Positions 4,301 through 45,646 of a stretch of 64,000 nucleotides of DNA are shown here, piece by piece. This DNA is from Clostridiales bacterium (GTDB lineage Bacteria > Bacillota > Clostridia > Oscillospirales > CAG-272), in contig JAAWQR010000005.1 in assembly GCA_022800625.1 (NCBI GenBank), positions 19,333 to 83,332 on the forward strand. Direction: 5' to 3'. The translations under genes were made by a program, and so were the position numbers. The notes below the pieces were generated by a model. The model was not told the origin of the DNA. It did no database searches and saw only the letters and a program-made list of their open reading frames with translations. Positions within the stretch are counted from its first letter, which is position 1, and the number at the start of each line of letters is the position of its first letter.

Positions 4301-7051
4301 ATGGCAAACCGAAGCAATGAGTGGCATCTGAGGGATGCGGAGACGGTAGCAGCAATTTTAGACAGCGATATTTATAACGGACTGCCGCCCAAAAAGATAC
4401 CGTCTCGCAGGCGGCGCGACGGGAAAAACCGTGTATGGCATGTGAAACATGCGACGGCTGCCGAATATCTTGTGAGCTGCGCCGGAGATCTTACCTCCGC
4501 CGTGCTTATTATAGCTGTTCTGACGGCGGCAGTTTTTGAAAAAACTATTCCGGCATTTTCCGTTTGCGCTATATTGGCGATAGGTATTATATTACGAATT
4601 CTTACATATGCTCTTTCAAGGCGTACCCTTGAGGGAATGGCAGAGGAGGGAATTCCCAGCGCGACTGTTCTCAGAGGCTCGGTTACACATGTAATAAGGG
4701 CTGACGAAATAGTAGTCGGCGATATAATTCTGCTTGAAGCCGGAGACATCGTTCCGTGCGACGGCAGGCTTGTCATAGGCGGAGAAGTGCGAGTAAGCGA
4801 GCGCGGAATTACAGAAAACCGCAGTACCGTTGTCAAGAGCAATACTGTCCTTGTTACGGAAAGCTCGGGGACTGAAGTGCCTTGCGAATACCGTGTTAAT
4901 ATGCTGTATGCGGGATCGGTTATTTTGTCCGGCAAGTGCAGAATGATCGCGACATCGTGCGGAGAAGGTACTCTTGTTTCAATGAGACACGGCGGTCTTT
5001 CAGTACCATCCGGAGAAAAAATTGCAGTGATCGATTCACTTCGGGATAAGTGCAGAGTCATGACGCTTGTTATGCTTGCGTCAGTTTTAATAATCAGCGC
5101 AGTTGCTGCCGCTTTCGGATACATATTCAGACGGGAGGTCGGCTTCGCCGCCGCTTTTATAAATGCGATGGCTCTTGCAGCCTCCTCCGCCGGGGCATAC
5201 CTTTTATCAGGCGTATATGCTTCCCTTGCCGTTTCCCTCAGACGTGCCGCGCGTAAAGGAAACATCCTCGGCAAGGCTGTTGTTAAGGATGCTTCGGATG
5301 TCGAGAAAGTCGCGCGTGTCAGGCGCATGATAGTATCGGGTACAGATGTGTTTAAGTCTGGAAGAGCATCATACACATCATTTTTTGAAAACGGAGAATT
5401 GAAAGAAGTACAAAAAGGCGATAAAGAGGCGGAACGAATTCTGAGACTTGTAAATTCCACGGTAAGCTTTTCGTACTCTTCATCTCTTTCGTCGGGAGAG
5501 GAAAAGCTTCCGTCAGGAAGATCATGCCTTGTCGCGAAACTTGCTGACATGGCTAAAACTCTTGATATCGACGGCGCTCCGAGGTTTACAGGCGGAGAGG
5601 TGATCGTTGATCATAAGGTGACCGATACACTGAACGGTGATTGCGACAATATAATACTTCGCCGCGGAAATTCATATGAAGCATATACAAGCGGCAGGAT
5701 CGAGGATATACTTTCTTTTTCTTCATGTTATTCAATGAACGGAAAAGAAGAGCCGCTCACGCAGGAGATGAGGGCTGAGATTCTTGCAGCTGTTCTTGAG
5801 ATAGAGAAGAGCGGAGGAGAAGTCATAGCAGCGGCACACAGGGATTCTCCGTATACGACTCTCAGGCGCGTATCGGTTCTTCAGAGCGATATGTGTTTTG
5901 ACGGATTTATCGTTTCCGAAGAGGAAACAGCAGCCTGTACCGGCGAATCGATAAATTATATGAAGGAAACAGCTACATCCGTGATACTGCTGTCTTCGCG
6001 TGCGCAAAATGATAAATATTATCTTGAAAAAGCCGGGATTGTTGAAAGCGAAACCCCTATTTTGTCATGCAGTGATGTGATAAGATCGAGTGAACTTCCG
6101 AGCGGCAGCTTTATCGTATCGGTTCCTGAATCGGGAGAAAATGGTAGACTGAACGGAAACCGTAATATGCGCCTTGCGGTTGTTAAGAAAATTACGGAAG
6201 TTTTTGATAACTGTGCAGTTATGTCAAGCGAACCTACTGATGCCGGAATGATGACGGACGGAAATGTAGGCGCGGCGCTCAGCCGTGCAGGTGAGCTTCC
6301 GATCCCTCAGACATTGAAAAGACGTTCTGTGCTGTCAGTATATCCGCGTGATAAAAAGAATACATGCGGCGGCTTTAATGAGCTTATTCAGGCTGTGTAT
6401 GCGTCAGGACTTGCCCTGTTTAACATACAAAGGTCTGTTCTTTATGTGATTTGCTCTCAGTGCGCAAAGATCGTATGCACTGTGCTGTCGGCTCTTTTCG
6501 GTATAAATGCCGTGAATGCCGCCGAAATTTTACTTCTCGGTACTGTGTTTGATTTTTCTGCATTGATTGTGATGGCATTTTCTTCCGCAAAACCGTCGGA
6601 GCTTGGAAAAAATTCGTCGTTTCCTGTTTTTCCGATTAAGAAAAGTTTGATACAAAATGCTTTATACGGTGCACTCTGCGGAGCGATCTGCTTCTCATTT
6701 ACGGCGATATCATCAAGTTTGGTTCCGCAAGGCGTAACTGACGGAGAAAATATATCGGCTTTGTGCATCGCTCTCATTTTAACGCAGCTTGTGATTTTGA
6801 GCGAGCAGCTGTCGGAAGGCTCTTTCCTCGGCAGATCTGTCGTGATAAACAGAGCATATATTATTTATTCCGTGATGACGCTTGTTTTGGCTGTTGCTCT
6901 TATGTTTTCCGTAGGTGTATGCTCGTTTCTCGGAGCTTCGCGCCCGACATGGCAAACAGCTGCCGCCGCTGTTGTATGTGCTCCGCTGATTCTTGCTTCG
7001 TCAGAGATATATAAGCGTATAAATGCCCCGAAAAGCAAAAGCGAAAAATAA
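4301..7051 (+). CDS. P-type (E1-E2) ATPase homolog with degenerate catalytic motifs (probable pseudo-ATPase)
   Basis: It has a Ca-ATPase-like N-terminus (WHL..ETVAAILDSD...GL), an A-domain-like VVGDIILLEAGDIVPCDGRL and about 10 TM segments. DKTGT is replaced by SGTDVFKS, TGES by TENRS, PEGLP by SSAGAY, and GDGxND by TDGNVGA. Confidence 0.7.
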   Translation: MANRSNEWHLRDAETVAAILDSDIYNGLPPKKIPSRRRRDGKNRVWHVKHATAAEYLVSCAGDLTSAVLIIAVLTAAVFEKTIPAFSVCAILAIGIILRILTYALSRRTLEGMAEEGIPSATVLRGSVTHVIRADEIVVGDIILLEAGDIVPCDGRLVIGGEVRVSERGITENRSTVVKSNTVLVTESSGTEVPCEYRVNMLYAGSVILSGKCRMIATSCGEGTLVSMRHGGLSVPSGEKIAVIDSLRDKCRVMTLVMLASVLIISAVAAAFGYIFRREVGFAAAFINAMALAASSAGAYLLSGVYASLAVSLRRAARKGNILGKAVVKDASDVEKVARVRRMIVSGTDVFKSGRASYTSFFENGELKEVQKGDKEAERILRLVNSTVSFSYSSSLSSGEEKLPSGRSCLVAKLADMAKTLDIDGAPRFTGGEVIVDHKVTDTLNGDCDNIILRRGNSYEAYTSGRIEDILSFSSCYSMNGKEEPLTQEMRAEILAAVLEIEKSGGEVIAAAHRDSPYTTLRRVSVLQSDMCFDGFIVSEEETAACTGESINYMKETATSVILLSSRAQNDKYYLEKAGIVESETPILSCSDVIRSSELPSGSFIVSVPESGENGRLNGNRNMRLAVVKKITEVFDNCAVMSSEPTDAGMMTDGNVGAALSRAGELPIPQTLKRRSVLSVYPRDKKNTCGGFNELIQAVYASGLALFNIQRSVLYVICSQCAKIVCTVLSALFGINAVNAAEILLLGTVFDFSALIVMAFSSAKPSELGKNSSFPVFPIKKSLIQNALYGALCGAICFSFTAISSSLVPQGVTDGENISALCIALILTQLVILSEQLSEGSFLGRSVVINRAYIIYSVMTLVLAVALMFSVGVCSFLGASRPTWQTAAAAVVCAPLILASSEIYKRINAPKSKSEK

Positions 7052-7236
7052 AATACGCACCTTAAAACAACAAAAATAAAAGTCCTTTGCATATAAAACA
7101 TAAATATGGTTTATTCGGAATAAAGTTTTATTGCAATAGGACTTGTTTTTTGTAGTATTTTGTACTATAATAATAGTTGCGAAATTGTATCAATTTATCG
7201 CTGATATTTATTATTTTTTTGAAAGGATATACTTTA

Positions 7237-8079
7237 ATGGCTGAAAACAGCAATGAATGTACGCATGACTGCTCGTCGTGCAACGCCGATTGCTCATCCA
7301 GAAATGAAATAGTTCATGAAAAACTTCATCCGGCAAGCAGTGTAAAGCATGTTATCGGGGTTGTCAGCGGAAAAGGCGGCGTCGGTAAATCTATAGTTAC
7401 GTCTATGCTGGCAGTTGCGATGAGAAGAAGAGATTTCCGCACGGCTGTGCTTGATGCCGATGTTACGGGACCTTCCGTTCCGAAGGCGTTCGGTGCTCAC
7501 GGGAAAGTCGGCAGCACAGGGGACGGACTTATTCCGATCACTACCAAAACAGGAATAGATATTATGTCCGTCAATCTTCTTTTAGATGAGGAAACAAGTC
7601 CTGTCGTATGGCGCGGACCCGTTATTGCAGGCGCGGTAAAACAGTTTTGGACAGACGTAATATGGTCTGATGAGGACTATATGTTTATCGATATGCCTCC
7701 GGGAACAGGAGATGTTCCGCTGACTGTATTTCAGTCGATTCCTCTCGACGGAATAATTATTGTTACAACTCCGCAGGAGCTCGTTTCAATGATCGTTGAA
7801 AAAGCGATTAATATGGCTTCTCTCATGAATATTCCGGTCATCGGCATCATTGAAAATATGTCATATGTAAAGTGCCCCGATTGCGGACGCCGTATAGATG
7901 TATTCGGAAAAAGCGGAACCGAGGCTCTCTGTGCAGAGCGCGGAATAAAATTCCTTGGACAGATTCCGTTTGATCCTTCTCTCGCATCGCTTTGCGACCG
8001 AGGAATTATTGAACTTTATGAAAACGACTATGTTGACGCGGCGGCTGATGCTGTGGAGAGCTTTGTCTCTGAAAAATAA
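7237..8079 (+). CDS. Mrp/NBP35 family ATP-binding Fe-S cluster carrier
   Basis: Deviant Walker A GVVSGKGGVGKS and a CPDC motif near the C-terminus. N-terminal Cys-rich CTHDCSSCNADC. The ATG at 7237 follows GAAAGGA with 9-nt spacing. The ORF-track start at 7177 is unlikely. Confidence 0.85.
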   Translation: MAENSNECTHDCSSCNADCSSRNEIVHEKLHPASSVKHVIGVVSGKGGVGKSIVTSMLAVAMRRRDFRTAVLDADVTGPSVPKAFGAHGKVGSTGDGLIPITTKTGIDIMSVNLLLDEETSPVVWRGPVIAGAVKQFWTDVIWSDEDYMFIDMPPGTGDVPLTVFQSIPLDGIIIVTTPQELVSMIVEKAINMASLMNIPVIGIIENMSYVKCPDCGRRIDVFGKSGTEALCAERGIKFLGQIPFDPSLASLCDRGIIELYENDYVDAAADAVESFVSEK

Positions 8080-8162
8080 GCTTTTTAATTGAAGCTGTAA
8101 AAAACAGCGCACATAAGCGCTGTACATAACAATCCAAAAATTATTCAGGAGGAAATATTTAT

Positions 8163-8654
8163 ATGAAGAAACCCATGACGGCAGTTTCTTTCACGGAAAC
8201 AGAAGAGCAAAAAGCGCGTCTTGAGGCGATTATTGAGGCTCACAAGGATGAAAAAGGAGCTCTGATGCCGATACTTCAGGAGGCTCAGGAAATATACGGA
8301 TATCTCCCGAAGGAGGTTCAGAAGCGTATCGCTCTCGGACTTGATATACCCGTGTCGGAGGTGTTCGGCGTTGCGACTTTTTATTCGCAGTTCTTACTTA
8401 ACCCCAAGGGACAGCATCCTGTAAGCGTATGTCTCGGAACGGCATGTTATGTTAAAGGCTCGGGACTTCTTATGGAGAAGCTTGAAGAACTTCTCGGAGT
8501 TTCAAACGGCTCTATTACCGAGGACTTAAAATTCAGTCTTGACGCTACAAGATGTATCGGCGCGTGCGGACTTGCTCCTGTTATAACTATAGGCGAGGAC
8601 GTGTACGGACGTCTTGAACCCGATCAGCTTGAAGGCATTCTTGCAAAATATTGA
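8163..8654 (+). CDS. hydC: NuoE-like thioredoxin-fold [2Fe-2S] subunit of HydABC/Hnd-type hydrogenase (HydC/HndA)
   Basis: Cys pattern VCLGTACYVKG...RCIGACGLAPV is typical of NuoE/HydC. A strong AGGAGG lies upstream. First gene of the hydrogenase cluster. Confidence 0.85.
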   Translation: MKKPMTAVSFTETEEQKARLEAIIEAHKDEKGALMPILQEAQEIYGYLPKEVQKRIALGLDIPVSEVFGVATFYSQFLLNPKGQHPVSVCLGTACYVKGSGLLMEKLEELLGVSNGSITEDLKFSLDATRCIGACGLAPVITIGEDVYGRLEPDQLEGILAKY

Positions 8655-8710
8655 TTTGAGCGGGGAAGGGCGTTTTTTTGCCGCATATAGAACGAAAGGC
8701 TGCTTAAAAA

Positions 8711-9073
8711 ATGAAAATCAACCAAATAAAAGAATTGCTTGACGCAGAGCTTCTCTGCGGAGATGAATACCTTGAAAACGACGTATACTCAGCATGCTGC
8801 AGCGATATGATGAGCGATGTTCTCGCATATGTGAAGGATCAGGGCGTTCTGCTGACAGGACTTGTAAACGCACAGGTCATCAGGACTGCAAGCATGATGG
8901 ATATGGTTTGTATAGTGTTTGTCAGAAGCAAAGTTCCGAGCGACGAAATGATCGAGCTTGCACACGAGTGCGGCATAGTCCTTATGAAAACATCGCGCCG
9001 TGCGTATGAAGCGTGCGGAGAGCTTTATTCTGCCGGACTCAGATCATCCTCGGAGGGATCGCGAAATGTCTGA
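8711..9073 (+). CDS. DRTGG domain protein (stand-alone)
   Basis: 120 aa. Typical DRTGG-type pattern ...LLCGDE...CCSDMMSDVLAY...LLTGL.NAQVIRTA. The stop overlaps the next gene's start by 8 nt. Confidence 0.6.
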   Translation: MKINQIKELLDAELLCGDEYLENDVYSACCSDMMSDVLAYVKDQGVLLTGLVNAQVIRTASMMDMVCIVFVRSKVPSDEMIELAHECGIVLMKTSRRAYEACGELYSAGLRSSSEGSRNV

Positions 9074-9491
9074 CAAGCTTACATTCCATTTTGAGGTTGA
9101 CGGTGAGAATTTTTCATCGGCCGGAGAAGCGTCGGTTATAATGAAAAAGAAGCTGAGACAGCTCGGTTTTTCACCTGATATTATCAGAAGAGTGTCGATC
9201 GCTATGTATGAAGGCGAGATCAATATGGTGATACATGCCGACGGCGGAGCGGCTGACGTGACCGTTACCGATGATGAAATAATTATCGTTCTTGCGGATC
9301 ACGGACCGGGGATACCCGATGTTTCTCTTGCGATGCAGGAGGGATATTCAACAGCGCGCGATAATATAAGGGCGCTTGGCTTCGGTGCGGGTATGGGTTT
9401 GCCGAACATGAAAAAATATACGGACAGCATGGAAATTGAGACTGAGCTCGGTGTCGGAACGACGATAACAATGAAGGTCAGTCTGAATTAA
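9066..9491 (+). CDS. Stand-alone GHKL (HATPase_c) protein, RsbW/SpoIIAB-like serine-kinase size class
   Basis: I prefer the ATG at 9066 (MSDKLTFHFEV) after GGAGGGA. GHKL boxes EGEINMVIHA, DHGPGI and GFGAGMGL are present. No DHp or receiver domain. Confidence 0.7.
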   Translation: MSDKLTFHFEVDGENFSSAGEASVIMKKKLRQLGFSPDIIRRVSIAMYEGEINMVIHADGGAADVTVTDDEIIIVLADHGPGIPDVSLAMQEGYSTARDNIRALGFGAGMGLPNMKKYTDSMEIETELGVGTTITMKVSLN

Positions 9492-9511
9492 GCCGTGCCG
9501 CGAGGTGGGTC

Positions 9512-10852
9512 ATGAAAAACTATAAACATTCGGTTTCACTTGACGTCACAAAATGCAAAGGATGCACAGCATGCCTCAAACGATGTCCAACTGAGGCAAT
9601 ACGTATACGCGACGGACACGCAAAGATAAATTCGGAGCGGTGTATCGACTGCGGAGAGTGCATAAAGGTTTGTCCGCATCGGGCAAAGAGAGCTACGCAC
9701 GATTCGGCGGACGATATGCAAAAGTATAAATTTACAGTTGCACTGCCGGCTCCCGCTCTGTACGGTCAGTTCAATAATATGACGAGCATCGATTACATAA
9801 TCGACGGATTGTACAAGATCGGCTTTGACTATGTCTTTGAGGTAGCCTGCGCGGCGGAGATCGTTTCCGCATATACGAGAATATATCTCGGGAGACAGGA
9901 AGTAAAACGCCCTGTGATAAGCTCTGCATGTCCCGTTATTACGAGAATGATAGGAATGAATTTCCCGTATCTGACAGATCAGATAATGCCGATACTTCCT
10001 CCGATAGACGTTGCGGCAACATCAGCGCTTGATCACGTATTGGAAGAGCATCCCGAACTTACACGCGAGGATATAGGAATATTCTTTATTTCCCCGTGCC
10101 CTGCAAAGGTAAGCTATGTGAAAAACGGCTTTGCGGGAGAAAAAAACAATATTGACCGTGTTATCTCGGTCAGAGACATATATTTCAGACTTCTTGATGT
10201 TATGAAGCATGATGAGGCTCCCGAATACAGCGCAGATTCGGGAATGGTCGGGATAGGTTGGGCAGCGACCGGAGGAGAATCCTCCGCCGTGTTCAACGAG
10301 CGCTACCTTGCTGCCGACGGAATTGAAAACTGTATTCGAGTACTGGAACAAATAGATAACGAGGACTTCACGGATCTTGACTTTATTGAGCTTAATGCGT
10401 GCAGCGGCGGATGCGTCGGCGGAGCTATGACGGTTGCCAACGCATACATAGCGCAGGCAAGGCTTCAGTCGCTTAAGCGATATCTTCCCGTGTCGCCTAA
10501 CCGACCTGAGGGCGGAGAAATACCTGATAAGTTTTTCTCTGACGGTGAAGTTAAATATCAGACGGGGTATAAGTTATCTGAAAACAGAGTCGAAGCTATG
10601 CGCATGATGAGCGAGATTGAAGATATTACGGCAAGTTTACCGGGTATCGACTGCGGTTCATGCGGTGCGCCGACGTGTATGGCGTTTGCCGAGGACATCG
10701 TTAAAAATGAAACAAACGCTGATGAATGTACAATCATAATGCGTCAGCTGTTTCATCAAAGTCTTGATCAGCGAAAGGCTAAAATCATCTCAGACACTAT
10801 ATCGAGGCAGTCGAAAAAAACTGATGAGAAGTCAGAAGGTGAAACAAATTAA
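9512..10852 (+). CDS. HydS-like putative sensory [FeFe] hydrogenase paralog (2x[4Fe-4S] ferredoxin + H-domain + C-terminal 4-Cys Fe-S domain)
   Basis: N-terminal CKGCTACLKRCP and CIDCGECIKVCP. H-cluster motifs are SSACP (for TSCCP), SPCPAK (for MPCxxK) and ELNACSGGCVGG (for ExMxCxxGCxxG). C-terminal CGSCGAPTC...EC motif. Confidence 0.8.
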   Translation: MKNYKHSVSLDVTKCKGCTACLKRCPTEAIRIRDGHAKINSERCIDCGECIKVCPHRAKRATHDSADDMQKYKFTVALPAPALYGQFNNMTSIDYIIDGLYKIGFDYVFEVACAAEIVSAYTRIYLGRQEVKRPVISSACPVITRMIGMNFPYLTDQIMPILPPIDVAATSALDHVLEEHPELTREDIGIFFISPCPAKVSYVKNGFAGEKNNIDRVISVRDIYFRLLDVMKHDEAPEYSADSGMVGIGWAATGGESSAVFNERYLAADGIENCIRVLEQIDNEDFTDLDFIELNACSGGCVGGAMTVANAYIAQARLQSLKRYLPVSPNRPEGGEIPDKFFSDGEVKYQTGYKLSENRVEAMRMMSEIEDITASLPGIDCGSCGAPTCMAFAEDIVKNETNADECTIIMRQLFHQSLDQRKAKIISDTISRQSKKTDEKSEGETN

Positions 10853-10855
10853 CGC

Positions 10856-11242
10856 ATGACTGTAGGCTGTTCACCGAGTGTTGCTCAGTCTGCGGTGCAG
10901 AAAGGCAGGTTTGCTTTGAAAACAGATGCAGTTGTTAAATCTCTCGGACTGAAGGCACTCGTAGGAGATGTTCCCGATGAATTTTCGGGAGTTTATGCAG
11001 GAGATCTGCTCAGCCGTGCGATGAGCCATGTGACTGAAGGCGATCTTTGGATCACTATCATGAATAATGTCAATGTCATTGCCGTTGCAAGCCTTACGGA
11101 AGCTGCCGCAGTTATTTTGGCTGAGGGTGTTGTTCTTCCCGAGGACGTGAAAAACGCTGCCGCGGAAAAAAATATTACAGTATTGTCGTCAGATGATACT
11201 GTGTATGATATCTGCCGCGGTATTGCGGTCTCTCTCTCATGA
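10856..11242 (+). CDS. DRTGG domain protein (second copy)
   Basis: Similar size and pattern to 8711..9073 (LKALVGDVPDE...YAGDLLSRAMSHV...). The start is either ATG 10856 or in-frame TTG 10916. The 3' end overlaps the PHP gene by 4 nt. Confidence 0.55.
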   Translation: MTVGCSPSVAQSAVQKGRFALKTDAVVKSLGLKALVGDVPDEFSGVYAGDLLSRAMSHVTEGDLWITIMNNVNVIAVASLTEAAAVILAEGVVLPEDVKNAAAEKNITVLSSDDTVYDICRGIAVSLS

Positions 11243-11970
11243 ACAGCTATAATTATGATCTGCATATCCATTCCTGTCTTTCGCCATGTGCTGACGATGA
11301 TATGACTCCTGCGAATATTGCGGGAATGGCTCATTTGCAGGGACTTAATATTGTGGCTCTTACAGATCATAATTCGTCAAAAAACTGCCCTGCATTTTTT
11401 GCACATGCGAAAAAATACGGCATAGTCCCGATAGCGGGAATGGAGCTTACGACTGCTGAGGACATACATGTTATCTGCCTTTTTGATACGCTTGACTCAG
11501 CAATGGAATTTGACGGTATTGTTGAAAGAAGGCTCATGTATGTTAAGAACCGCCCCGATATATTCGGATGTCAGCTCATCATGAATGAAAATGACGAGAC
11601 TGTGGGTGAGATCGAGCCGCTTCTCATAAACGCGACGGATATAGACCTTGACGAGGCATATAAAATATGTACTTCAATGGGAGGCGCATGCTATCCCGCT
11701 CATATTGACAGGGATTCGGGCGGTATGATATCCATTCTCGGAAATTTTCCCGATAATCCGAAATATGCGGCATTTGAACTTAATTTTAAGGAATCTCTTG
11801 AAGAATACATGGCAAGATTTCCCGTGACGGAAAAAATGCAGTTTGTCGTGTCATCCGATGCGCATAATCTCTGGAAAATATCAGATGCAGGCAATACATT
11901 ATCCCTTGATGATGAGCCGTACAGTTCTCAGAAAGTCAGAGAATCCCTTATAAAATATTTAAGGGGATAA
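11239..11970 (+). CDS. PHP domain phosphoesterase
   Basis: N-terminal YDLHIHSCLSPCADD and ALTDHNS His/Asp metal-binding motifs, with a later SSDAH motif. 243 aa. Confidence 0.75.
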   Translation: MNSYNYDLHIHSCLSPCADDDMTPANIAGMAHLQGLNIVALTDHNSSKNCPAFFAHAKKYGIVPIAGMELTTAEDIHVICLFDTLDSAMEFDGIVERRLMYVKNRPDIFGCQLIMNENDETVGEIEPLLINATDIDLDEAYKICTSMGGACYPAHIDRDSGGMISILGNFPDNPKYAAFELNFKESLEEYMARFPVTEKMQFVVSSDAHNLWKISDAGNTLSLDDEPYSSQKVRESLIKYLRG

Positions 11971-12006
11971 GTAAATCTCACGACAGTCAAGCGGACGGAG
12001 GTACAG

Positions 12007-12585
12007 ATGGAAGAATTTTCGCTTTATGTTCTTGATATCACTATGAATTCCGTACGTGCAGGCGCCGATAAAATCGATGTGACGCTGGAAGAGAAAAAAT
12101 CTGACGGCGGGGAGCGTATGTTGTATTTTACAGTAAGCGATAACGGCTGCGGAATGAGCGGGGAAATGGTAAAGCGTCTTGCCGATCCGTTCTTTACGAC
12201 AAGAAAGACACGATCCGTAGGACTCGGTGTGCCTTTTCTTAAGATGCTTGCCGAGCAAACTGGCGGAGGTCTTGAAATCGTTTCAAGGTCCAAAGAAGAG
12301 CATCCCGACGATCACGGGACAACGCTTAAAGCAAGCTTCGGAATAGAGCATATAGATTTTATTCCGCTCGGCGATCTTGAGGGCACGTTTATAACTCTGA
12401 TACAGGGAAGTCCCGATATCGATTTTACATTTACTTATATAACTCCGACAGGAAAGGTACATCTTGCTTGCAGTGAGATTCGCGAAATACTCGGAGGGGA
12501 TATTTCACTCGCTGAGTTTGAAGTACTTGAATGGATCAGGGGTTATCTGAGAGAAAGCTATGAAGCTTTAAAACAAAATAAATAA
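12007..12585 (+). CDS. Stand-alone GHKL (HATPase_c) ATP-binding protein (second copy)
   Basis: N-box-like ITMNSVRAGA, G1 DNGCGM and G2 GLGVPFL. No DHp, receiver or DNA-binding domain. Confidence 0.7.
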   Translation: MEEFSLYVLDITMNSVRAGADKIDVTLEEKKSDGGERMLYFTVSDNGCGMSGEMVKRLADPFFTTRKTRSVGLGVPFLKMLAEQTGGGLEIVSRSKEEHPDDHGTTLKASFGIEHIDFIPLGDLEGTFITLIQGSPDIDFTFTYITPTGKVHLACSEIREILGGDISLAEFEVLEWIRGYLRESYEALKQNK

Positions 12586-12609
12586 TAAATCCTGAAAGGA
12601 AATTATCAT

Positions 12610-12981
12610 ATGAAATCTCTTGAAGAATTGATGGCGATCAAAGAAAAGATGCAGGACAAGGTTGCTCTGCGTCACGCATCAGACGAAGTTCGCGTAGTAG
12701 TCGGCATGGCTACATGCGGTATTGCAGCAGGCGCACGTCCTGTACTTAACGCTTTTGTCGAAGGCGTATCCGAAGCAGGACTTGCAAGCCGTGTTACGGT
12801 TACTCAGACTGGCTGCATAGGTATATGTCAGTATGAGCCTGTTGTCGAAATATTTGAAAAAGACAAAGAAAAAGTCACTTATGTAAAAATGACGGCTGAA
12901 AAAGCCCGTGAAGTCATTGAAAAGCATATTAAGGGCGGAAATCCTGTAGCCGAATACACGATCGGCAACGCTAAAATATAA
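12610..12981 (+). CDS. Small thioredoxin-like [2Fe-2S] ferredoxin subunit (HndB-like)
   Basis: GMATCGIAAGA...TGCIGICQYEP pattern. 123 aa. Lies directly upstream of the NuoF-like gene. Confidence 0.75.
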   Translation: MKSLEELMAIKEKMQDKVALRHASDEVRVVVGMATCGIAAGARPVLNAFVEGVSEAGLASRVTVTQTGCIGICQYEPVVEIFEKDKEKVTYVKMTAEKAREVIEKHIKGGNPVAEYTIGNAKI

Positions 12982-13001
12982 CTTAGGAGGAAATATAGGC
13001 T

Positions 13002-14798
13002 ATGTTTCGTATACATGCATTGATTTGCGGCGGTACAGGCTGTACCTCCTCAGGCAGTATGTCGGTCAAGGAGGCTCTTGAAAAAGAACTCGCGGCAAAA
13101 GGACTTGAGGAAGAGGTAAAAATTGTACAGACGGGATGTTTCGGACTTTGTGCGCTCGGTCCGATCATGATCGTATATCCGGAGGGAACATTCTACAGCA
13201 TGGTAAAGGCTGAGGATATCCCCGAGATCGTTGAGGAGCACTTCCTCAAAGGTCGTCCTGTTGAGCGCCTTGTTTATAACGAGGCTGCAAAGGATCATCC
13301 GGCAGAGGCTGTAGCGTCTCTTAATGATACTGCTTTCTATAAAAAGCAGAAGAGAGTTGCGCTCCGCAACTGCGGCGTTATCAACCCTGAAAATATCGAT
13401 GAGTATATAGCTATGGACGGTTATTTTGCTCTCGCCAAGGTTTTGAAGGAGATGACTCCCGATGATGTTATCAAAACCGTTCTTGACTCAGGACTTCGCG
13501 GACGCGGAGGCGGCGGATTCCCGACGGGAAGAAAGTGGCAGTTTGCAAAGGCGAGTGTATCTGATAAAAAGTATGTCGTATGTAATGCCGACGAGGGCGA
13601 CCCGGGAGCATTCATGGACCGTTCGGTTCTCGAGGGTGACCCGCATGCAGTTCTTGAAGCAATGGCTATCGCAGGCTATGCTATCGGAGCTGACGAAGGT
13701 TGGATATATGTCCGTGCCGAGTATCCGATCGCTGTAAGAAGACTTAATATCGCAATAGAGCAGGCAAGAGAATACGGAATTCTCGGAAAGGGAATTTTCG
13801 GTACAGACTTCAATTTTGATATTCATATTCGTCTCGGTGCAGGCGCGTTCGTTTGCGGTGAGGAAACAGCTCTTCTTACATCAATTGAAGGTAACCGCGG
13901 TGAGCCGCGTCCCCGTCCGCCTTTCCCGGCAGTTAAGGGGCTTTGGGGCAAGCCGACCATTATCAATAATGTAGAGACATACGCAAATATTGCTCAGATC
14001 ATTCTGAACGGCGCTGATTGGTTTGCTTCAATGGGTACGGAGACGTCCAAGGGAACAAAGGTATTTGCTCTCGGCGGTAAGATTAAAAATACAGGTCTTG
14101 TTGAGATCCCGATGGGTACAACTCTCCGCGAGATCGTAGAAGAGATCGGCGGCGGCGTTCCGAACGGTAAGAAGTTTAAGGCGGCTCAGACGGGCGGTCC
14201 GTCAGGCGGATGTATTCCGGCTTCTCTCATTGATACGCCTATCGACTATGACAACCTCATAAAGATCGGATCAATGATGGGTTCAGGCGGACTTATCGTA
14301 ATGGACGAGGATACTTGTATGGTTGACCTTGCTAAGTTCTTCCTTGAGTTCACTGTAGACGAGTCTTGCGGAAAGTGTGCGCCTTGCCGTATCGGTACGG
14401 TTCGACTTCTTGAGATTCTGAATAAGATCACATCAGGCAACGGTGAGATGGAAGACCTTGATAAGCTTGAGGAACTTGCAAACTACATAAAGAGCGCTTC
14501 TCTCTGCGGTCTCGGTCAGACAGCTCCGAACCCCGTTCTTTCAACACTTCGTTACTTCAGAGACGAGTATATCGCTCATATCAGAGATAAAAAATGTCCG
14601 GCGGGCGTATGTAAGAAGTTGCTTTCATTTGAGATCGATCCCGAAAAATGTAAGGGATGCACTCTCTGTGCAAGACAGTGCCCAGCAGGCGCTATCACGG
14701 GTAAGGTTAAAGAAGCACATGTTATCGATACCGAGAAGTGCGTAAAATGCGGCGCTTGTATGGAAAAATGTAAGTTCGGTGCAATTTCCAAGAAATAA
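13002..14798 (+). CDS. hydB: NuoF-like FMN/NAD(H)-binding subunit of bifurcating-type hydrogenase (HydB/HndC)
   Basis: N-terminal [2Fe-2S] (CGGTGC...GCFGLCALGP), GRGGGGFPTGRKW FMN/NADH motif, ESCGKCAPCR [4Fe-4S], and C-terminal 2x ferredoxin CKGCTLCARQCP / CVKCGACMEKC. Confidence 0.92.
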   Translation: MFRIHALICGGTGCTSSGSMSVKEALEKELAAKGLEEEVKIVQTGCFGLCALGPIMIVYPEGTFYSMVKAEDIPEIVEEHFLKGRPVERLVYNEAAKDHPAEAVASLNDTAFYKKQKRVALRNCGVINPENIDEYIAMDGYFALAKVLKEMTPDDVIKTVLDSGLRGRGGGGFPTGRKWQFAKASVSDKKYVVCNADEGDPGAFMDRSVLEGDPHAVLEAMAIAGYAIGADEGWIYVRAEYPIAVRRLNIAIEQAREYGILGKGIFGTDFNFDIHIRLGAGAFVCGEETALLTSIEGNRGEPRPRPPFPAVKGLWGKPTIINNVETYANIAQIILNGADWFASMGTETSKGTKVFALGGKIKNTGLVEIPMGTTLREIVEEIGGGVPNGKKFKAAQTGGPSGGCIPASLIDTPIDYDNLIKIGSMMGSGGLIVMDEDTCMVDLAKFFLEFTVDESCGKCAPCRIGTVRLLEILNKITSGNGEMEDLDKLEELANYIKSASLCGLGQTAPNPVLSTLRYFRDEYIAHIRDKKCPAGVCKKLLSFEIDPEKCKGCTLCARQCPAGAITGKVKEAHVIDTEKCVKCGACMEKCKFGAISKK

Positions 14799-14818
14799 GA
14801 AAGGAAACGACATTACAC

Positions 14819-16558
14819 ATGGATATGATGAATATAAAGATCAACGGCGCGGATTATTCAGTTCCTGCCGGAATCACTGTACTTGAAGCTGCAAAGTATG
14901 CCGGAATCGATATTCCGACGCTTTGCTACCTCAAGGATATAAATGAAATCGGTGCATGCAGACTTTGCCTTGTTGAAGTAAAAGGCGCAAGGGGGCTTGT
15001 AACCTCATGCGTATATCCCATTAACGAGGGCATGGAGATATTTACCAATACAGAAAAAGTCAGACGTGCCCGCAAGACAAATATTGAGCTTGTTCTTTCA
15101 GCTCATAAGAAGAAATGTCTCTCGTGTATCAGAAGCACGAACTGTGAGCTTCAGAAGCTTGCACGCGACTACGGTGCAGATGAGGATTACTTCAAAAGCG
15201 ATGATGACAGAGAATATCCGATCGATGTTTCCTCTCCGTCTATCATTCGTGATAACAACAAATGTATTCTTTGCCGCCGCTGCGTTGCTGCATGTAATAA
15301 ACTTCAGGGAATCGGAGCTATCGGTACTCTGAACCGCGGTTACGACACAGAGATCGGAAGCCAGTTCGGTCTTCCGCTTGCTGAGACTTCCTGCATCAAC
15401 TGCGGACAGTGCATAGTTGCATGTCCTGTAGGTGCTCTCTATGAGAAGGATGACACACAGAAGATCATGGAAGCTATCAACGATCCTTCAAAGCACGTTG
15501 CTATCTGTTGCGCTCCGTCAGTCAGAGCTACTATCGGAGAGTGCTTCGGCATGGCTCCCGGCACTGACGCTGAGGGAAAGATGGTTGCAGCTCTAAAGAA
15601 GCTCGGCTTTGACGGCGTATACGACATGAACTTTACAGCTGACCTCACTATCATGGAGGAGGCCACAGAGTTCCTTGGCAGAGTTAAGAACGGCGGACCG
15701 CTTCCGCTTATTACCTCATGCTCGCCCGGATGGGTCAAGTTCTGCGAGCATTACTTCCCCGAAATGACGGAGAATCTTTCAACATGTAAGTCTCCTCAGC
15801 AGATGTTCGGTGCGGTTTACAAGACATACTTCGCTGAAAAGATGGGCATTGATCCTAAGGATATCGTATTTGTATCCGCTATTCCCTGTACAGCTAAGAA
15901 GTTTGAGGTAACACGCGACGGTCAGGACGTTGACGGAATGCCGGGAGTTGATATAGCAGTTACAACCCGCGAGCTCGGACGTATGATAGACGCTGCCGGA
16001 ATCGAATTTACAGCTCTTGCTGACGAGAAGTTTGATACACCTATCGACATCGGATCAGGTGCGGGCGCTATCTTCGGCGCTACAGGCGGAGTTATGGAGG
16101 CAGCTCTCAGAACTGCCGCTGAGGTTATTGAAGGAAAGCCGCTTGAAAAGCTTGATTTTGAGGAAGTACGCGGTACTGACGGCATTAAGTTTGCAACATA
16201 CAAGCTCGGCGATATTGAACTTAACGTTGCTGTAGCTTCAGGTACTGCAAATGCAGCTAAGCTCTTGAAGGGCGTACAGGACGGAACATACAACGTTCAG
16301 TTTATCGAGATCATGGCTTGTCCCGGCGGATGCGTAAACGGCGGCGGTCAGCCGACTCAGCCGGCGTCTGTCAGAAATTCTGTTGATCTTAAGAAGGTTC
16401 GCGCTGAGGTTCTTTACACAGCCGATCGCAATCTTGATCTTCGCAAATCACACGAAAACTCGATTATTAAGCAGATATATGATGAGTTCCTCGGAGAACC
16501 GAACAGCCACAAGGCTCATGAGCTTCTCCACACTCATTACGTAAAGCGCGGTCTGTAA
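14819..16558 (+). CDS. hydA: [FeFe] hydrogenase catalytic subunit (HydA/HndD, NADH-dependent group A type)
   Basis: N-terminal [2Fe-2S] and His-ligated cluster, then CILCRRCVAACN and CINCGQCIVACP. H-domain motifs are TSCSPGW, IPCTAKKFE and EIMACPGGCVNGGGQP. Confidence 0.92.
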   Translation: MDMMNIKINGADYSVPAGITVLEAAKYAGIDIPTLCYLKDINEIGACRLCLVEVKGARGLVTSCVYPINEGMEIFTNTEKVRRARKTNIELVLSAHKKKCLSCIRSTNCELQKLARDYGADEDYFKSDDDREYPIDVSSPSIIRDNNKCILCRRCVAACNKLQGIGAIGTLNRGYDTEIGSQFGLPLAETSCINCGQCIVACPVGALYEKDDTQKIMEAINDPSKHVAICCAPSVRATIGECFGMAPGTDAEGKMVAALKKLGFDGVYDMNFTADLTIMEEATEFLGRVKNGGPLPLITSCSPGWVKFCEHYFPEMTENLSTCKSPQQMFGAVYKTYFAEKMGIDPKDIVFVSAIPCTAKKFEVTRDGQDVDGMPGVDIAVTTRELGRMIDAAGIEFTALADEKFDTPIDIGSGAGAIFGATGGVMEAALRTAAEVIEGKPLEKLDFEEVRGTDGIKFATYKLGDIELNVAVASGTANAAKLLKGVQDGTYNVQFIEIMACPGGCVNGGGQPTQPASVRNSVDLKKVRAEVLYTADRNLDLRKSHENSIIKQIYDEFLGEPNSHKAHELLHTHYVKRGL

Positions 16559-16581
16559 AGAGATACACATGGGAATGACGT

Positions 16582-16611
16582 GGGGGAGACTTTTTGAAAA
16601 AAGTCTCCCCC
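16582..16611. repeat. GC-rich perfect palindrome (13-bp arms) just downstream of hydA; hairpin or REP-like element
   Basis: GGGGGAGACTTTT-TGAA-AAAAGTCTCCCCC. No flanking U-tract, so it is not a canonical intrinsic terminator. Confidence 0.5.
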
Positions 16612-16720
16612 ACACCTCCTTCAAAAACTTTTGAAAAGAGTTTTTGATGAGTTTGTGCCGATACCGAATGATATACTAAGCTCAACTGATTACTTTTTTT
16701 CAGAAGTTTTGGGGAGGGAG

Positions 16721-16759
16721 TTTGAGGGAGGAACTTTTTCAAAAGTTCTCTCCCTCAAA
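16721..16759. repeat. Second G/C-rich imperfect palindrome (about 17-bp arms)
   Basis: TTTGAGGGAGGAACTTT...AAAGTTCTCTCCCTCAAA with one bulge, preceded by GGGGAGGGAG. Confidence 0.45.
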
Positions 16760-16773
16760 AAATCGTATTTCTA

Positions 16774-16802
16774 TTGCAATTTTACTGATATTGCGTTATA
16801 AT
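16774..16802 (+). promoter_or_regulatory. Sigma-A type promoter of the thi operon
   Basis: TTGCAA (16774-16779), 17-nt spacer, TATAAT (16797-16802). Confidence 0.7.
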
Positions 16803-16809
16803 AAGAATA

Positions 16810-16897
16810 TCAAACATGGGGAGCTTGTGTTACAGGCTGAGAGGAAGGTATACCTTCGACCCGAAACCTGATTTGGATAATGCCAACGTAGGGACAA
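16810..16897 (+). promoter_or_regulatory. TPP (THI-box) riboswitch aptamer
   Basis: Contains the conserved GGGGAGC...GGCTGAGA...ACCCGAAACCTGAT..GGATAATGCC..CGTAGGGA elements in canonical order. Located upstream of thiE. Confidence 0.88.
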
Positions 16898-16910
16898 AAT
16901 ACGCTCTTTG

Positions 16911-16950
16911 CGGATATACCGAGGCTTGGTATATCCGTATTTTGTTTATT
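16911..16950 (+). terminator. Riboswitch expression-platform terminator
   Basis: CGGATATACC-GAGGCTT-GGTATATCCG followed by TATTTTGTTTATT. The upstream AAAATACG can pair alternatively. Confidence 0.7.
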
Positions 16951-16979
16951 TCAGTATCGTATCAAGCAGGTAGAAGTAT

Positions 16980-17621
16980 ATGAAAATTAAAAGAGAAGAT
17001 CTATTGCTTTATGGAATAACAGACAGGTCGCGCCTTGGGGGAGCTGAGCTTTACGAGCATGTCAAAATGGCTCTTGACGGCGGTGTGACATTTTTGCAGC
17101 TCAGAGAAAAAAATCGTGAAAAAGATCAGGTTCTCGAAGAAGCGTGCCGAATAGGCGAGCTTTGCAGGGAATATAATGTTCCGTTTATAATAAACGATGA
17201 TCCTGAAATTGCTCGGCTGTCGGGTGCGGACGGAGTTCATGTCGGTCAGCGGGATATGGAGGCGGGACGCGTCCGCGAGATACTCGGAGAAGATAAAATC
17301 ATCGGGGTAACTGCACGTACGGTTGAACAGGCGATTGCTGCCGAGCGCAGCGGAGCGGATTACCTCGGCTGCGGCGCGGTTTTCCCTACAGGCACAAAAT
17401 CGGATGCGGTAGAGCTTGATCATAACACTTTGCGCAAGATATGCGAAGCTGTAAATATTCCTGTCATTGCCATCGGCGGAATTTGTGAAAACAATATTAT
17501 GGAACTTAAAGGCAGCGGAATATGCGGTGTTGCCGTTATCGGCGCGATTTTCGGAAGTGATGATATTAAATCTGCATCTGCGAGGCTTAAAGTTTTTGCA
17601 GAAAAGATGACAAGCTCATGA
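16980..17621 (+). CDS. thiE: Thiamine-phosphate synthase
   Basis: LYGITDR...VTFLQLREK...FIINDD...ADGVHVGQRD...IAIGGI motifs typical of ThiE. Confidence 0.9.
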   Translation: MKIKREDLLLYGITDRSRLGGAELYEHVKMALDGGVTFLQLREKNREKDQVLEEACRIGELCREYNVPFIINDDPEIARLSGADGVHVGQRDMEAGRVREILGEDKIIGVTARTVEQAIAAERSGADYLGCGAVFPTGTKSDAVELDHNTLRKICEAVNIPVIAIGGICENNIMELKGSGICGVAVIGAIFGSDDIKSASARLKVFAEKMTSS

Positions 17622-18769: not shown

Positions 18770-18893
18770 ACTTACGCAGACTGCAATTACAGTCATTTGC
18801 CTATGATTGCAGATGAACGGAGTACATCAGCGGCAGACTGGGGGCACCACTATCTGCCGCTATATAAAAGTAATGCAAGTTCTAAATGAAAGG

Positions 18894-19727
18894 ATGGTTT
18901 TTACCTTGAAAACTGCATTAACGATCGCAGGAAGCGATTCCTGCGGAGGCGCCGGTATACAAGCAGACATCAAAACAATGACAATGAACGGTGTCTATGC
19001 GATGAGTGCGATTACAGCACTGACCGCGCAAAATACGACCGGCGTTACGGGAATTTCGGAGGTAACTCCCGATTTCCTCGAAGAACAGCTTGACAGAATA
19101 TTTACAGACATACGTCCTGACGCTGTGAAAATCGGTATGGTATCCGCGACAGCTCTGATTGAGGTCATATCGCGCAAGCTGAGAGAGTATGGGGCACAAA
19201 AAATTGTTCTTGATCCCGTAATGGTGGCAACAAGCGGAGCCGTGCTCATAAGCGGCGATGCTGTAGCTGCACTGAAAAGCGAGCTTTTGCCGATAGCAAC
19301 GCTTGCAACACCGAATATTCCCGAATCTGAGGCACTATCAGGAATAAAAATTTTAAGCGAGACTGATATGTTAAAGGCGGCACAGTTGATCTCGGAGAAA
19401 TACGGATGCGCTGTACTCTGTAAAGGCGGTCACAGCTTAAACGATGCAAACGATCTACTGTGGCAGAACGGAGAATATCGGTGGTTCAGGGTACGCAGGA
19501 TAGAAAACAGCAACACCCACGGAACAGGCTGCACGCTGTCAAGTGCTATTGCTTCAAATTTAGCTAAAGGATTCTCTCTCGAAGAATCGGTAGAGAGAGC
19601 AAAAGAATATATCTCCGGCGCGCTTGGCGCAATGCTTGATCTCGGGCACGGAAGCGGTCCGATGAATCACGCGTTTGACCTAAAAGGAAGATTTGCCGAG
19701 AATCCCGATGATTTTACAAACGCCTAA
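18894..19727 (+). CDS. thiD: Hydroxymethylpyrimidine/phosphomethylpyrimidine kinase
   Basis: LTIAGSDSCGGAGIQADIKT...GTGCTLSSAIA motifs. ATG 18894 (MVFTLKTALTIAG) is preferred over the ORF-track start at 18807. Confidence 0.88.
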   Translation: MVFTLKTALTIAGSDSCGGAGIQADIKTMTMNGVYAMSAITALTAQNTTGVTGISEVTPDFLEEQLDRIFTDIRPDAVKIGMVSATALIEVISRKLREYGAQKIVLDPVMVATSGAVLISGDAVAALKSELLPIATLATPNIPESEALSGIKILSETDMLKAAQLISEKYGCAVLCKGGHSLNDANDLLWQNGEYRWFRVRRIENSNTHGTGCTLSSAIASNLAKGFSLEESVERAKEYISGALGAMLDLGHGSGPMNHAFDLKGRFAENPDDFTNA

Positions 19728-19782: not shown

Positions 19783-21087
19783 ATGAGAAACTATACAACA
19801 CAAATGGACGCTGCGAAGCGCGGTATCATAACACCTGAAATGAAAGCTGTCGCTGAGAAGGAATACAGAACAGAAGAGGAAATCAGAGATTTGGTAGCAA
19901 AAGGGCAGGTTGCTATATGTGCTAATAAGCTGCATGAATGTATAGATCCGAACGGAGTAGGATCAATGCTGAGAACAAAAATCAATGTAAACTTGGGCAT
20001 TTCAAAGGACTGCAAGGATTATGATATTGAAATGCAGAAGGTTATGGCGGCAGTTGATATGGGAGCTGAGGCAATAATGGATCTCTCATCTCATGGAAAT
20101 ACACAGCCGTTCCGCAGAAAGCTGATCTCTGAATGCCCTGCAATGATAGGAACAGTTCCCGTATATGACAGTGTTATACACTATCAGAGAGATTTGGCAA
20201 CTCTTACAGCTAAGGATTTTATAGATGTAGTAAGACTTCATGCAGAGGACGGAGTAGATTTTGTCACACTGCATTGCGGCATCACAAGAAAAACGATTGA
20301 GCAGATAAAGAAGCACAAGAGAAAAATGAATATTGTATCTCGCGGCGGGTCACTTGTTTTTGCTTGGATGAGCATGACGGGTGAGGAGAATCCTTTCTAC
20401 GAGTATTATGATGAAATACTTGAAATTTGCAGAGAATATGACGTTACAATTTCTCTCGGAGACGCATGCCGACCGGGATGCCTTGCAGATGCGAGCGACG
20501 TTTGTCAAATCGAAGAGCTTGTGAGACTCGGCGAGCTGACAAAGCGCGCATGGGAAAAAGATGTTCAGGTTATGGTTGAAGGACCCGGGCACATGCCGCT
20601 TGATCAGATAGAAGCCAACATGAAATTACAGCAGACAATCTGCATGGGTGCACCTTTCTATGTTCTCGGACCGATCGTCACTGATATTGCTCCCGGATAC
20701 GATCATATTACATCGGCTATCGGAGGAGCTATCGCAGCGTCAGCGGGCGCCGCATTCCTGTGCTATGTAACGCCTGCCGAGCATCTCGCGCTTCCGAATG
20801 TTGAGGATGTAAAGCAGGGAATCATCGCGTCACGTATAGCGGCCCATGCTGCGGATATCGCAAAGCATATTCCCCACGCAAGAGATATTGACGATGAGAT
20901 GGCAGATGCAAGACGTACTTTTGACTGGGAGCGTCAGTGGGAGTGCTCGATCGATCCCGAGACAGCAAAGCGCATCCGTGATGAGAGAAAGCCTGAGGTC
21001 GAAGAAAGCTGTTCCATGTGCGGTAAATTCTGTGCGGTAAGAAGCATGAATAAAGCGCTGAACGACGAGTATATAGATATACTGTAA
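19783..21087 (+). CDS. thiC: Phosphomethylpyrimidine synthase (radical SAM)
   Basis: 434 aa. N-terminal [16 protein letters not shown] and C-terminal CSMCGKFC cluster motif. Confidence 0.92.
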
Positions 21088-24733: not shown

Positions 24734-24762
24734 ATTGATAATTCCTTTCCGAGGGGTTAAGT

Positions 24763-45412: not shown

Positions 45413-45646
45413 ATAAATTACCGTGCCTTTCACTCTTTTTTGATTTTGTATGCTGTTTAATACATATGCCGGTTTCTTGTGATAAATCCGTTTTACGGAA
45501 AAAATCACAGAATGATTCATACGGTGCGGTGAAAATCTAAAATTCACTATTGATATGAGCGGCGTAATGTTGTATAATTATTTTGTAATTTGGTGTTTTG
45601 CCTAAATATATTAACGAATAATAATTGTGAAAGAAGGATGTTTATT

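Follow-up and report, generated by a model that had tools for sequence, protein, structure and literature searches.

A 64,000-nucleotide stretch of DNA from a Clostridiales bacterium (contig JAAWQR010000005.1; the whole stretch is hereafter termed the window) encodes, in addition to the catalytic [FeFe] hydrogenase HydA, a second hydrogenase-like protein, HydS. An earlier sequence-only reading had described the product of hydS as a paralog that keeps the cysteines of the H-cluster and changes three residues around it, raising the questions of which class of [FeFe] hydrogenase this protein belongs to and what function it serves within its operon. Our analysis indicates that the open reading frame (ORF) at 9512..10852 very probably specifies an [FeFe] hydrogenase of group D (M2e) that is related to TamHydS at the level of an ortholog, and that would act as a slow reporter of H2 or redox state and signal to the products of neighboring genes. 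TamHydS of Thermoanaerobacter mathranii is the model group D enzyme, characterized between 2020 and 2026 (PMC8163306, PMC10407848, PMC11803613, PMC13104023).

Class assignment of HydS

Group D, also termed M2e, has been defined by two N-terminal [4Fe-4S] motifs, a C-terminal Cx2Cx4Cx16C motif and the absence of a PAS domain, in combination with loss of the relay cysteine C299, replacement of M353 by a well-conserved Ser or Thr, and poor conservation at the position of M497 (Land et al. 2020, PMC8163306; residues numbered as in CpI). Genes of this group precede those of a bifurcating group A hydrogenase (PMC8163306), and a group D-specific proton path has been described that is composed, in TamHydS, of E252, E289, S249 (Ser/Thr) and D265 (Cabotaje et al. 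2023, PMC10407848). HydS displays each of these sequence features, and hydS is likewise found in the operon of a bifurcating hydrogenase. HydS is a typical member of the described group D class in its typical genomic setting.

When compared by BLASTP, HydS was 46% identical to TamHydS from end to end over 431 amino acids (E 9e-133, 378 bits). Identity to a group C reference, a putative ortholog of TmHydS, was 24.5% (112 bits), and identity to the group A enzymes CpI and HydA of the window was 25%. In a neighbor-joining tree of 68 sequences, built by this distance method with one reference sequence per group, HydS and TamHydS formed a clade to the exclusion of the group C and group A sequences in 99/100 bootstraps. 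The phylogenetic placement that had been proposed as a check of the sequence-only reading therefore puts HydS with TamHydS. The NCBIfam models of group A hydrogenases scored HydS far under their cut-off (90.9 vs 405.95 bits).

The reference sequences used for these comparisons were themselves verified. The CpI sequence was identical at 574/574 positions to PDB entries 1feh/3c8y. The TamHydS protein was rebuilt from the codon-optimized gene in supporting information (SI) Table S1 of PMC13104023, an error-bearing text from which reading frames were stitched, and 24/24 residue numbers quoted in the papers fell on the right amino acids of the rebuilt sequence. The group C reference was a Thermotoga-type HydS of 521 amino acids encoded on a metagenome contig (L088, 518-2083, minus strand), which was found with a 21-nucleotide pattern from a TmHydS mutagenesis primer; a 32-nucleotide primer-derived pattern had no match in the metagenome scan. 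Residues A131, G177, Y223 and S267 of this protein matched the residue numbers published for TmHydS. Its C-terminal extension of about 135 residues, at the reported place of the PAS domain in TmHydS, gave no Pfam PAS match at E <= 0.01, and it is by residue numbering, not by a PAS match, that the protein is taken as the likely TmHydS ortholog.

Active-site residues were mapped by a phmmer comparison with PDB hydrogenases, a three-sequence MAFFT alignment of HydS, CpI and HydA of the window, a 128-sequence MAFFT alignment with 125 full-length family representatives, an alignment of 120 close homologues, and published residue numbers. All alignments agreed that the four H-cluster cysteines C300, C355, C499 and C503 of CpI are retained as C140, C196, C297 and C301 of HydS, and that C299, M353 and M497 are replaced by A139, S194 and N295. 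The sequence-only reading had given the three loops as SSACP, SPCPAK and ELNACSGGCVGG, with Ala in place of the relay cysteine and Ser and Asn in place of the two methionines. All of these assignments were borne out, with the substitutions recovered in four independent comparisons: L1 is SSACP (residues 137-141, nucleotides 9920..9934, with A139 and C140), L2 is SPCPAK (residues 194-199, 10091..10108, with S194 and C196), and L3 is ELNACSGGCVGG (residues 293-304, 10388..10423, with E293, N295, C297 and C301). HydS lacks the L1 TSCCPxW, L2 MPCxxKxxE and L3 ExMxCxxGCxxG motifs of prototypical and bifurcating group A enzymes.

In the alignment with CpI, TamHydS and the TmHydS-type protein, which had also been proposed as a check and which upheld the motif equivalences, A139, S194 and N295 of HydS fell on A137, S191 and L291 of TamHydS and on A131, G177 and S267 of the TmHydS-type protein. 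These are the published equivalents of C299, M353 and M497 (PMC8163306, PMC11803613, PMC10055695 SI). Because the residue numbers in the literature concur with four alignments made independently, an artefact of misaligned motifs was rejected. The earlier statement that loss of the relay cysteine and both methionines is typical of putative sensory hydrogenases of groups C and D agrees with the literature (PMC8163306).

The correspondence with TamHydS extends beyond these three positions. HydS A139, S194, E256, E293 and T253 align with TamHydS A137, S191, E252, E289 and S249, and HydS D269, D380, E394 and D395 align with D265, D378, E392 and D393. The proton path residues T253, E256 and D269 are encoded at 10268..10318. 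Both proteins have the same three-domain architecture and a similar length (446 amino acids in HydS vs 435 in TamHydS), Ala at C299, Ser at M353, the Glu/Glu/Ser-Thr/Asp proton path and the Cx2Cx4Cx16C motif, and they share the charged inter-domain residues R31, R33, E394 and D395 as well as D380 beside the first C-terminal cysteine. In both cases the gene accompanies those of a bifurcating group A hydrogenase and adjoins one for a histidine-kinase-like ATPase. In contrast to TamHydS, which has Leu at the M497 position, HydS has Asn, and Asn or Asp is conserved there in a gut sub-clade. HydS further differs by I124 in place of E122 (CpI E282), H36 in place of K35 and E405 in place of D403, by the lack of an AraC-type regulator adjacent to its gene, and by its host, a mesophilic gut/rumen-type member of the Oscillospirales rather than a thermophile.

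The identification of HydS draws on ORF, Pfam, TamHydS similarity, AlphaFold2 and Foldseek evidence. The gene is one intact frame of 446 codons on the plus strand. Its N-terminal F-domain (9533..9685, residues 8-58; Pfam Fer4_10, Fer4 and Fer4_7) contains two [4Fe-4S] motifs with the ligands C15, C18, C21, C25 and C44, C47, C50, C54; in the MAFFT alignment these eight cysteines match CpI C147-C200 and are kept in 106-125/125 representatives. The H-domain (9731..10426, residues 74-305) was identified as Fe_hyd_lg_C (Pfam PF02906, 96.6 bits, E 2.4e-27). A C-terminal [4Fe-4S] domain follows (10637..10732, residues 376-407; Pfam PF04060, E 3e-13), in which C381-x2-C384-x4-C389-x16-C406 is an exact Cx2Cx4Cx16C motif; these cysteines correspond to C379/C382/C387/C404 of TamHydS and are kept in 119-122/125 representatives. 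The four-cysteine domain CGSCGAPTC...EC described from the sequence is thus present, but it is not the end of the chain, since a helix of 38 residues with a Lys/Glu-rich tail (10730..10843, residues 407-444) is predicted after it by AlphaFold2. As had been stated, there is no PAS domain: Pfam found none in HydS at E <= 0.01, and the chain stops 40 residues beyond its last cysteine, C406, which leaves no space for one.

An AlphaFold2 model of HydS, computed from a 59-sequence alignment, had a mean predicted local distance difference test score of 94.4 and a predicted template modeling (TM) score of 0.89. The top-ranking PDB matches of this model by Foldseek were all [FeFe] hydrogenases, with query TM scores of 0.6-0.67. 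The best of these was CbA5H at only 23% identity, and structures of group C and group D enzymes therefore appear to be unsolved. Group A enzymes, including CpI, CrHydA1 and HydA of the window, share with HydS the H-cluster ligands, the H-domain fold at these TM scores, and the F-domain. Unlike HydS, they have the relay cysteine, both methionines and a proton path of E279, S319 and R286, all of which are replaced in HydS, and they end in a small-subunit-like C terminus where HydS, about 25% identical to them, has its additional [4Fe-4S] domain.

HydS belongs to a large family. A word-indexed search with HydS returned at least 8000 clusters at E <= 1e-10, including one with 100% identity and many with 67-80%, and phmmer, run exhaustively against representatives at 50% identity, gave 395 clusters at E <= 1e-30. 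When a single genome was scanned for each species, a HydS relative was detected in at least 595 genomes, of which the best 80 were all metagenome-assembled genomes of gut or rumen Clostridia, among them Ruminococcus sp. (79%), Candidatus Flemingiibacterium, Oscillospiraceae and Acutalibacteraceae. These relatives point to the type of bacterium from which the window derives.

Residue conservation was counted in the 125 full-length family representatives and in 120 clusters of close homologues with 67-100% identity to HydS. Among the 125 representatives, the residues at the C299 position included Ala (41), Ser (26), Phe (17) and Thr (12), and those at the M353 position Thr (59) and Ser (47), a total of 106/125 for the latter two. 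The M497 position held Arg (29), Asn (17) or Leu (17), in addition to Tyr, Ser, Gln and Met, a spread that agrees with the published poor conservation of this site (PMC8163306). The E256 position was Glu in 95/125 representatives and is Val in group A. Close homologues were nearly uniform, with Ala in 120/120 at A139, Ser in 119/120 at S194, and Asn in 115/120 or Asp in 5/120 at N295; the proton path residues E256, E293, T253 and D269 were kept in 118-120/120. Asn at the M497 position is a conserved feature of this sub-clade, yet the site that it occupies was known before to be variable. A sequencing error or a pseudogene was rejected, given the intact frame and the retention of the same residues by the 120 cluster representatives. 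The substitutions combined in HydS are those described as usual for a large, well-populated family and do not mark an unusual paralog, and the combination is not new. As a sequence finding HydS adds little, group D enzymes with exactly these substitutions having been studied since 2020.

The hyd operon and the genes that accompany hydS

The genes of the hyd cluster lie on the same strand (plus), with tight spacing or overlaps. The first, hydC (8163..8654), encodes a NuoE-like [2Fe-2S] subunit (Pfam PF01257, E 3e-49), and its position is conserved in loci L001-L080. It is followed by a gene for a first DRTGG-domain protein (8711..9073; Pfam PF07085), which immediately precedes the genes for HATPase and HydS in close as well as distant relatives, and by a gene for a SpoIIAB-like GHKL ATPase of the Ser-kinase type with 142 amino acids (9063..9491, with the ATG at 9063 taken as the start; Pfam HATPase_c and HATPase_c_2). 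This ATPase aligned from end to end with SpoIIAB, an anti-sigma factor and Ser kinase (PDB 1til and 1l0o, E 8e-7), and matched the NCBIfam spIIAB model at E 7e-15, below its cut-off. By eye, the N, G1 and G2 boxes for nucleotide binding appear to be kept, and homologues of the protein have 142-144 amino acids.

Three nucleotides past the hydS stop codon begins a gene for a second DRTGG-domain protein (10856..11242; Pfam PF07085, E 2e-7), which overlaps by four nucleotides with a gene for a PHP-domain phosphoesterase (11239..11970; Pfam PF02811, E 1e-10). Relatives both close and distant keep the PHP gene behind HydS-DRTGG, and no PDB entry matched its product in sequence. Next is a second GHKL ATPase gene (12007..12585; Pfam HATPase_c, E 6e-14), whose product has no HisKA domain and resembles the catalytic domains of histidine kinases, its best PDB matches being the CA domains of KinB and ZraS. 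The cluster is completed by genes for a HydD-like, thioredoxin-like [2Fe-2S] protein that is kept in the related loci (12610..12981; Pfam PF01257, E 1.4e-5), the NuoF-like flavoprotein subunit HydB (13002..14798; NCBIfam nuoF_fam, E 2e-150) and the catalytic, bifurcating-type group A hydrogenase HydA (14819..16558). HydA scored 862 bits against NF040763, the NCBIfam model of NADH-dependent group A [FeFe] hydrogenases (cut-off 765), and also matched Pfam Fe_hyd_lg_C with 304 bits and the small-subunit domain.

Conservation of this arrangement was examined by tblastn with the ten cluster proteins and the Mrp-type ATPase encoded upstream of them, against 80 related loci (the best of at least 595). 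The gene set NuoE-DRTGG-HATPase-HydS-DRTGG-PHP-HATPase-HydD-HydB-HydA was present, all genes sharing one strand, in virtually every sufficiently long contig among these 80, with NuoE moved to a place after PHP in five loci. A scan of 6900-17100 for promoters and terminators gave no more sites than in shuffled sequences. No regulatory RNA was found in front of the operon, the sole match being a thiamine pyrophosphate (TPP) riboswitch after it.

Among more distant family members with 31-45% identity (loci L081 and L083-L087), the arrangement DRTGG-HATPase-HydS(-DRTGG-like-PHP) persists while the catalytic neighbor changes. The neighbor is a molybdopterin, formate-dehydrogenase-like subunit in L084, and in L085 it is a small subunit of the [NiFe] type accompanied by FlpD; in L081 the module is found without an adjacent redox enzyme, with CheW and GGDEF genes nearby. 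Natural fusions were present in 7/10 unusually long family representatives. DRTGG is fused to the C terminus of HydS in four of these (P0140, P0145, P0263 and P0236) and to the N terminus in two (P0172 and P0198), and in one (P0168) an HATPase domain is N-terminal. No PAS domain was found among the ten long representatives.

Proposed role of HydS and its alternatives

Experiments on TamHydS have established slow reversible catalysis, a stabilized Hred state and a Glu-based proton path, and by analogy the same properties would be expected of HydS; a low affinity for CO is a further trait of the group D type. In the proposed mechanism, HydS would assemble a normal H-cluster on C140, C196, C297 and C301, along with three accessory [4Fe-4S] clusters, within a pocket that is devoid of the relay cysteine (A139) and of both methionines (S194 and N295). 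Protons would take the group D route E256 - E293 - T253 - D269. These changes to the pocket would be expected to slow H2 turnover and stabilize a reduced state of the H-cluster, and HydS would therefore report the level of H2, or the redox level, instead of carrying metabolic flux. The signal would be handed, probably as a conformational change, to the two DRTGG proteins, the SpoIIAB-like ATPase and the PHP phosphoesterase, and these partners would in turn control the bifurcating hydrogenase HydABC(D) of the same operon.

From the conserved neighborhood, the fusions and the domain families together we infer that a kinase/phosphatase module relays the HydS signal, an inference that fits the observation of Land et al. 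that a histidine-kinase-like ATPase adjoins TamHydS (PMC8163306). One study points to a conformational rather than a redox signal (PMC13104023). A more specific proposal, which we put forward tentatively and hold to be somewhat less probable than its opposite, is that the DRTGG pair, the SpoIIAB-like kinase-type ATPase and the PHP protein are the signaling partners of group D HydS proteins in a phospho-relay, similar to a partner switch, that couples H2 to the activity or expression of a downstream NuoEF-type enzyme, with Asn or Asp at the M497 position giving the sensor a distinct tuning in the gut Oscillospirales sub-clade. The downstream enzyme may be [FeFe] HydABC, a [NiFe] enzyme or a formate-dehydrogenase-like enzyme.

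The neighbors of HydS resemble the SpoIIAB/SpoIIAA/SpoIIE partner-switch in the 142-amino-acid SpoIIAB-like GHKL protein, the small single-domain proteins and the phosphoesterase. Unlike that system, they have DRTGG in place of STAS and PHP in place of PP2C, and there is no gene for a sigma factor in the vicinity; the likeness is one of domain family and gene order and concerns the neighboring genes only. No open-access paper linking DRTGG domains to hydrogenases was found in a search that left subscription journals (e.g. Calusinska et al. 2010) outside its reach, which makes this weak evidence of novelty.

Several observations weigh against this reading of HydS. The papers themselves term the sensory role of group D enzymes "putative." TamHydS catalyzes reversible interconversion of H+ and H2 (PMC8163306), in view of which a minor role of HydS in catalysis or electron transfer is possible by analogy. 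HydS differs from TamHydS at N295 and I124, and its kinetics could differ as well. No HydE, HydF or HydG maturase gene was seen in the annotated part of the window, and neither a phosphorylation target nor a DNA-binding regulator or sigma factor came to light in the operon. The case for a kinase/phosphatase relay is drawn from gene neighborhood, fusions and domain family, which suggest such a relay by association.

The alternative that survives best, while still unlikely, is that HydS is an additional low-activity subunit of HydABC(D) with a catalytic or electron-transfer function, for example as a second H2-converting site or as the point at which ferredoxin feeds in. Such a subunit would explain why hydS shares an operon with hydC, hydD, hydB and hydA and why HydS possesses all of the cluster ligands along with an F-domain of the ferredoxin type. 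It would not account for the company that hydS keeps, since the gene travels with those for DRTGG, SpoIIAB-like ATPase and PHP proteins even beside a non-[FeFe] redox enzyme or none at all, nor for the occasional fusion of HydS to DRTGG or HATPase domains. Three solved bifurcating complexes are titled HydABC in the PDB (7q4w, 8a6t and 7p8n), and we take these to be without a HydS-type subunit. The TamHydS data bear on this alternative in both directions, in that its H+/H2 conversion is reversible and its rates are low (PMC8163306).

Much less probable is that HydS is an Fe-S scaffold or redox sensor similar to Nar1/NARF, lacking the [2Fe] subcluster. Several second-sphere residues that hold [2Fe] in group A enzymes are indeed altered in HydS. 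However, HydS retains the four H-cluster cysteines, P141, P195, K199 and the GGC motif, all of them nearly invariant in the family, and TamHydS, with the same C299 and M353 substitutions, incorporates [2Fe]adt and shows H2 turnover (PMC8163306).

Membership of group C (M2f), the PAS-linked sensory hydrogenases exemplified by TmHydS and Ruminococcus albus HydS, is refuted and is the least credible alternative of all: HydS shares with T. maritima TmHydS the F-domain, Ala at C299, the loss of both methionines, the C-terminal four-cysteine domain (PMC8163306) and a proposed H2-sensing role, but it lacks the C-terminal PAS extension and is too short to hold one, is closer to TamHydS (46% vs 24.5% identity), is separated from group C in the tree with the bootstrap support given above, and has S194, N295 and E256 where TmHydS has Gly, Ser and Tyr (Chongdar et al. 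2018; PMC10055695).

Under the favored reading of HydS as a group D reporter, its gut and rumen sub-clade is of interest as an abundant and mesophilic group with a conserved Asn at the M497 site. The DRTGG/SpoIIAB-like/PHP module is a concrete and testable candidate for the signaling pathway of group D hydrogenases. If confirmed, the module would explain how gut fermenters tune electron-bifurcating H2 production to the partial pressure of H2.

The HydA variant and other genes of the window

HydA of the window has its own variant motifs. Its L1 is TSCSPGW (residues 299-305, 15713-15733), with Ser (TCG, 15722-15724) at the position of the CpI ligand C300, and its L2 is IPCTAKK, with Ile at the M353 position. 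TSCSPGW was present in 43/43 HydA genes located downstream of HydS in L001-L080 and is therefore not a sequencing slip. HydA1 of A. woodii, which is active and structurally solved (PDB 7q4v), also has TSCSPGW, and the variant is mentioned in one eLife paper (PMC3787301).

Directly upstream of the hyd cluster, at 7177-8079, is a gene for a P-loop ATPase of the Mrp/NUBPL Fe-S carrier type (Pfam PF10609, 300 bits) with a Cys-rich N terminus, CTHDCSSCNADC. A homologue was found upstream of the cluster on the same strand in L008 and on the opposite strand in L070 and L079. This ATPase may supply Fe-S clusters to the Fe-S proteins of the operon.

Elsewhere in the window, the ORF at 23501-24766 (minus strand) had no Pfam match at the threshold used, and those at 27115-28413 (plus), 29372-31087 (plus) and 44450-45547 (minus) had no NCBIfam match at the threshold used. 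These four ORFs encode proteins of 365-571 amino acids, and the remaining genes of the window are housekeeping genes.

On the downstream side of hydA, the TPP riboswitch (16807-16911; Rfam RF00059, 58 bits) and a terminator-like hairpin of 14 bp behind it (16909-16939) lead into thiamine genes, comprising a thiE-like gene (16980-17621) and genes for hydroxymethylpyrimidine phosphate (HMP-P) kinase (18807-19727) and ThiC (19783-21087). The riboswitch and the thiamine genes mark the end of the hyd operon.

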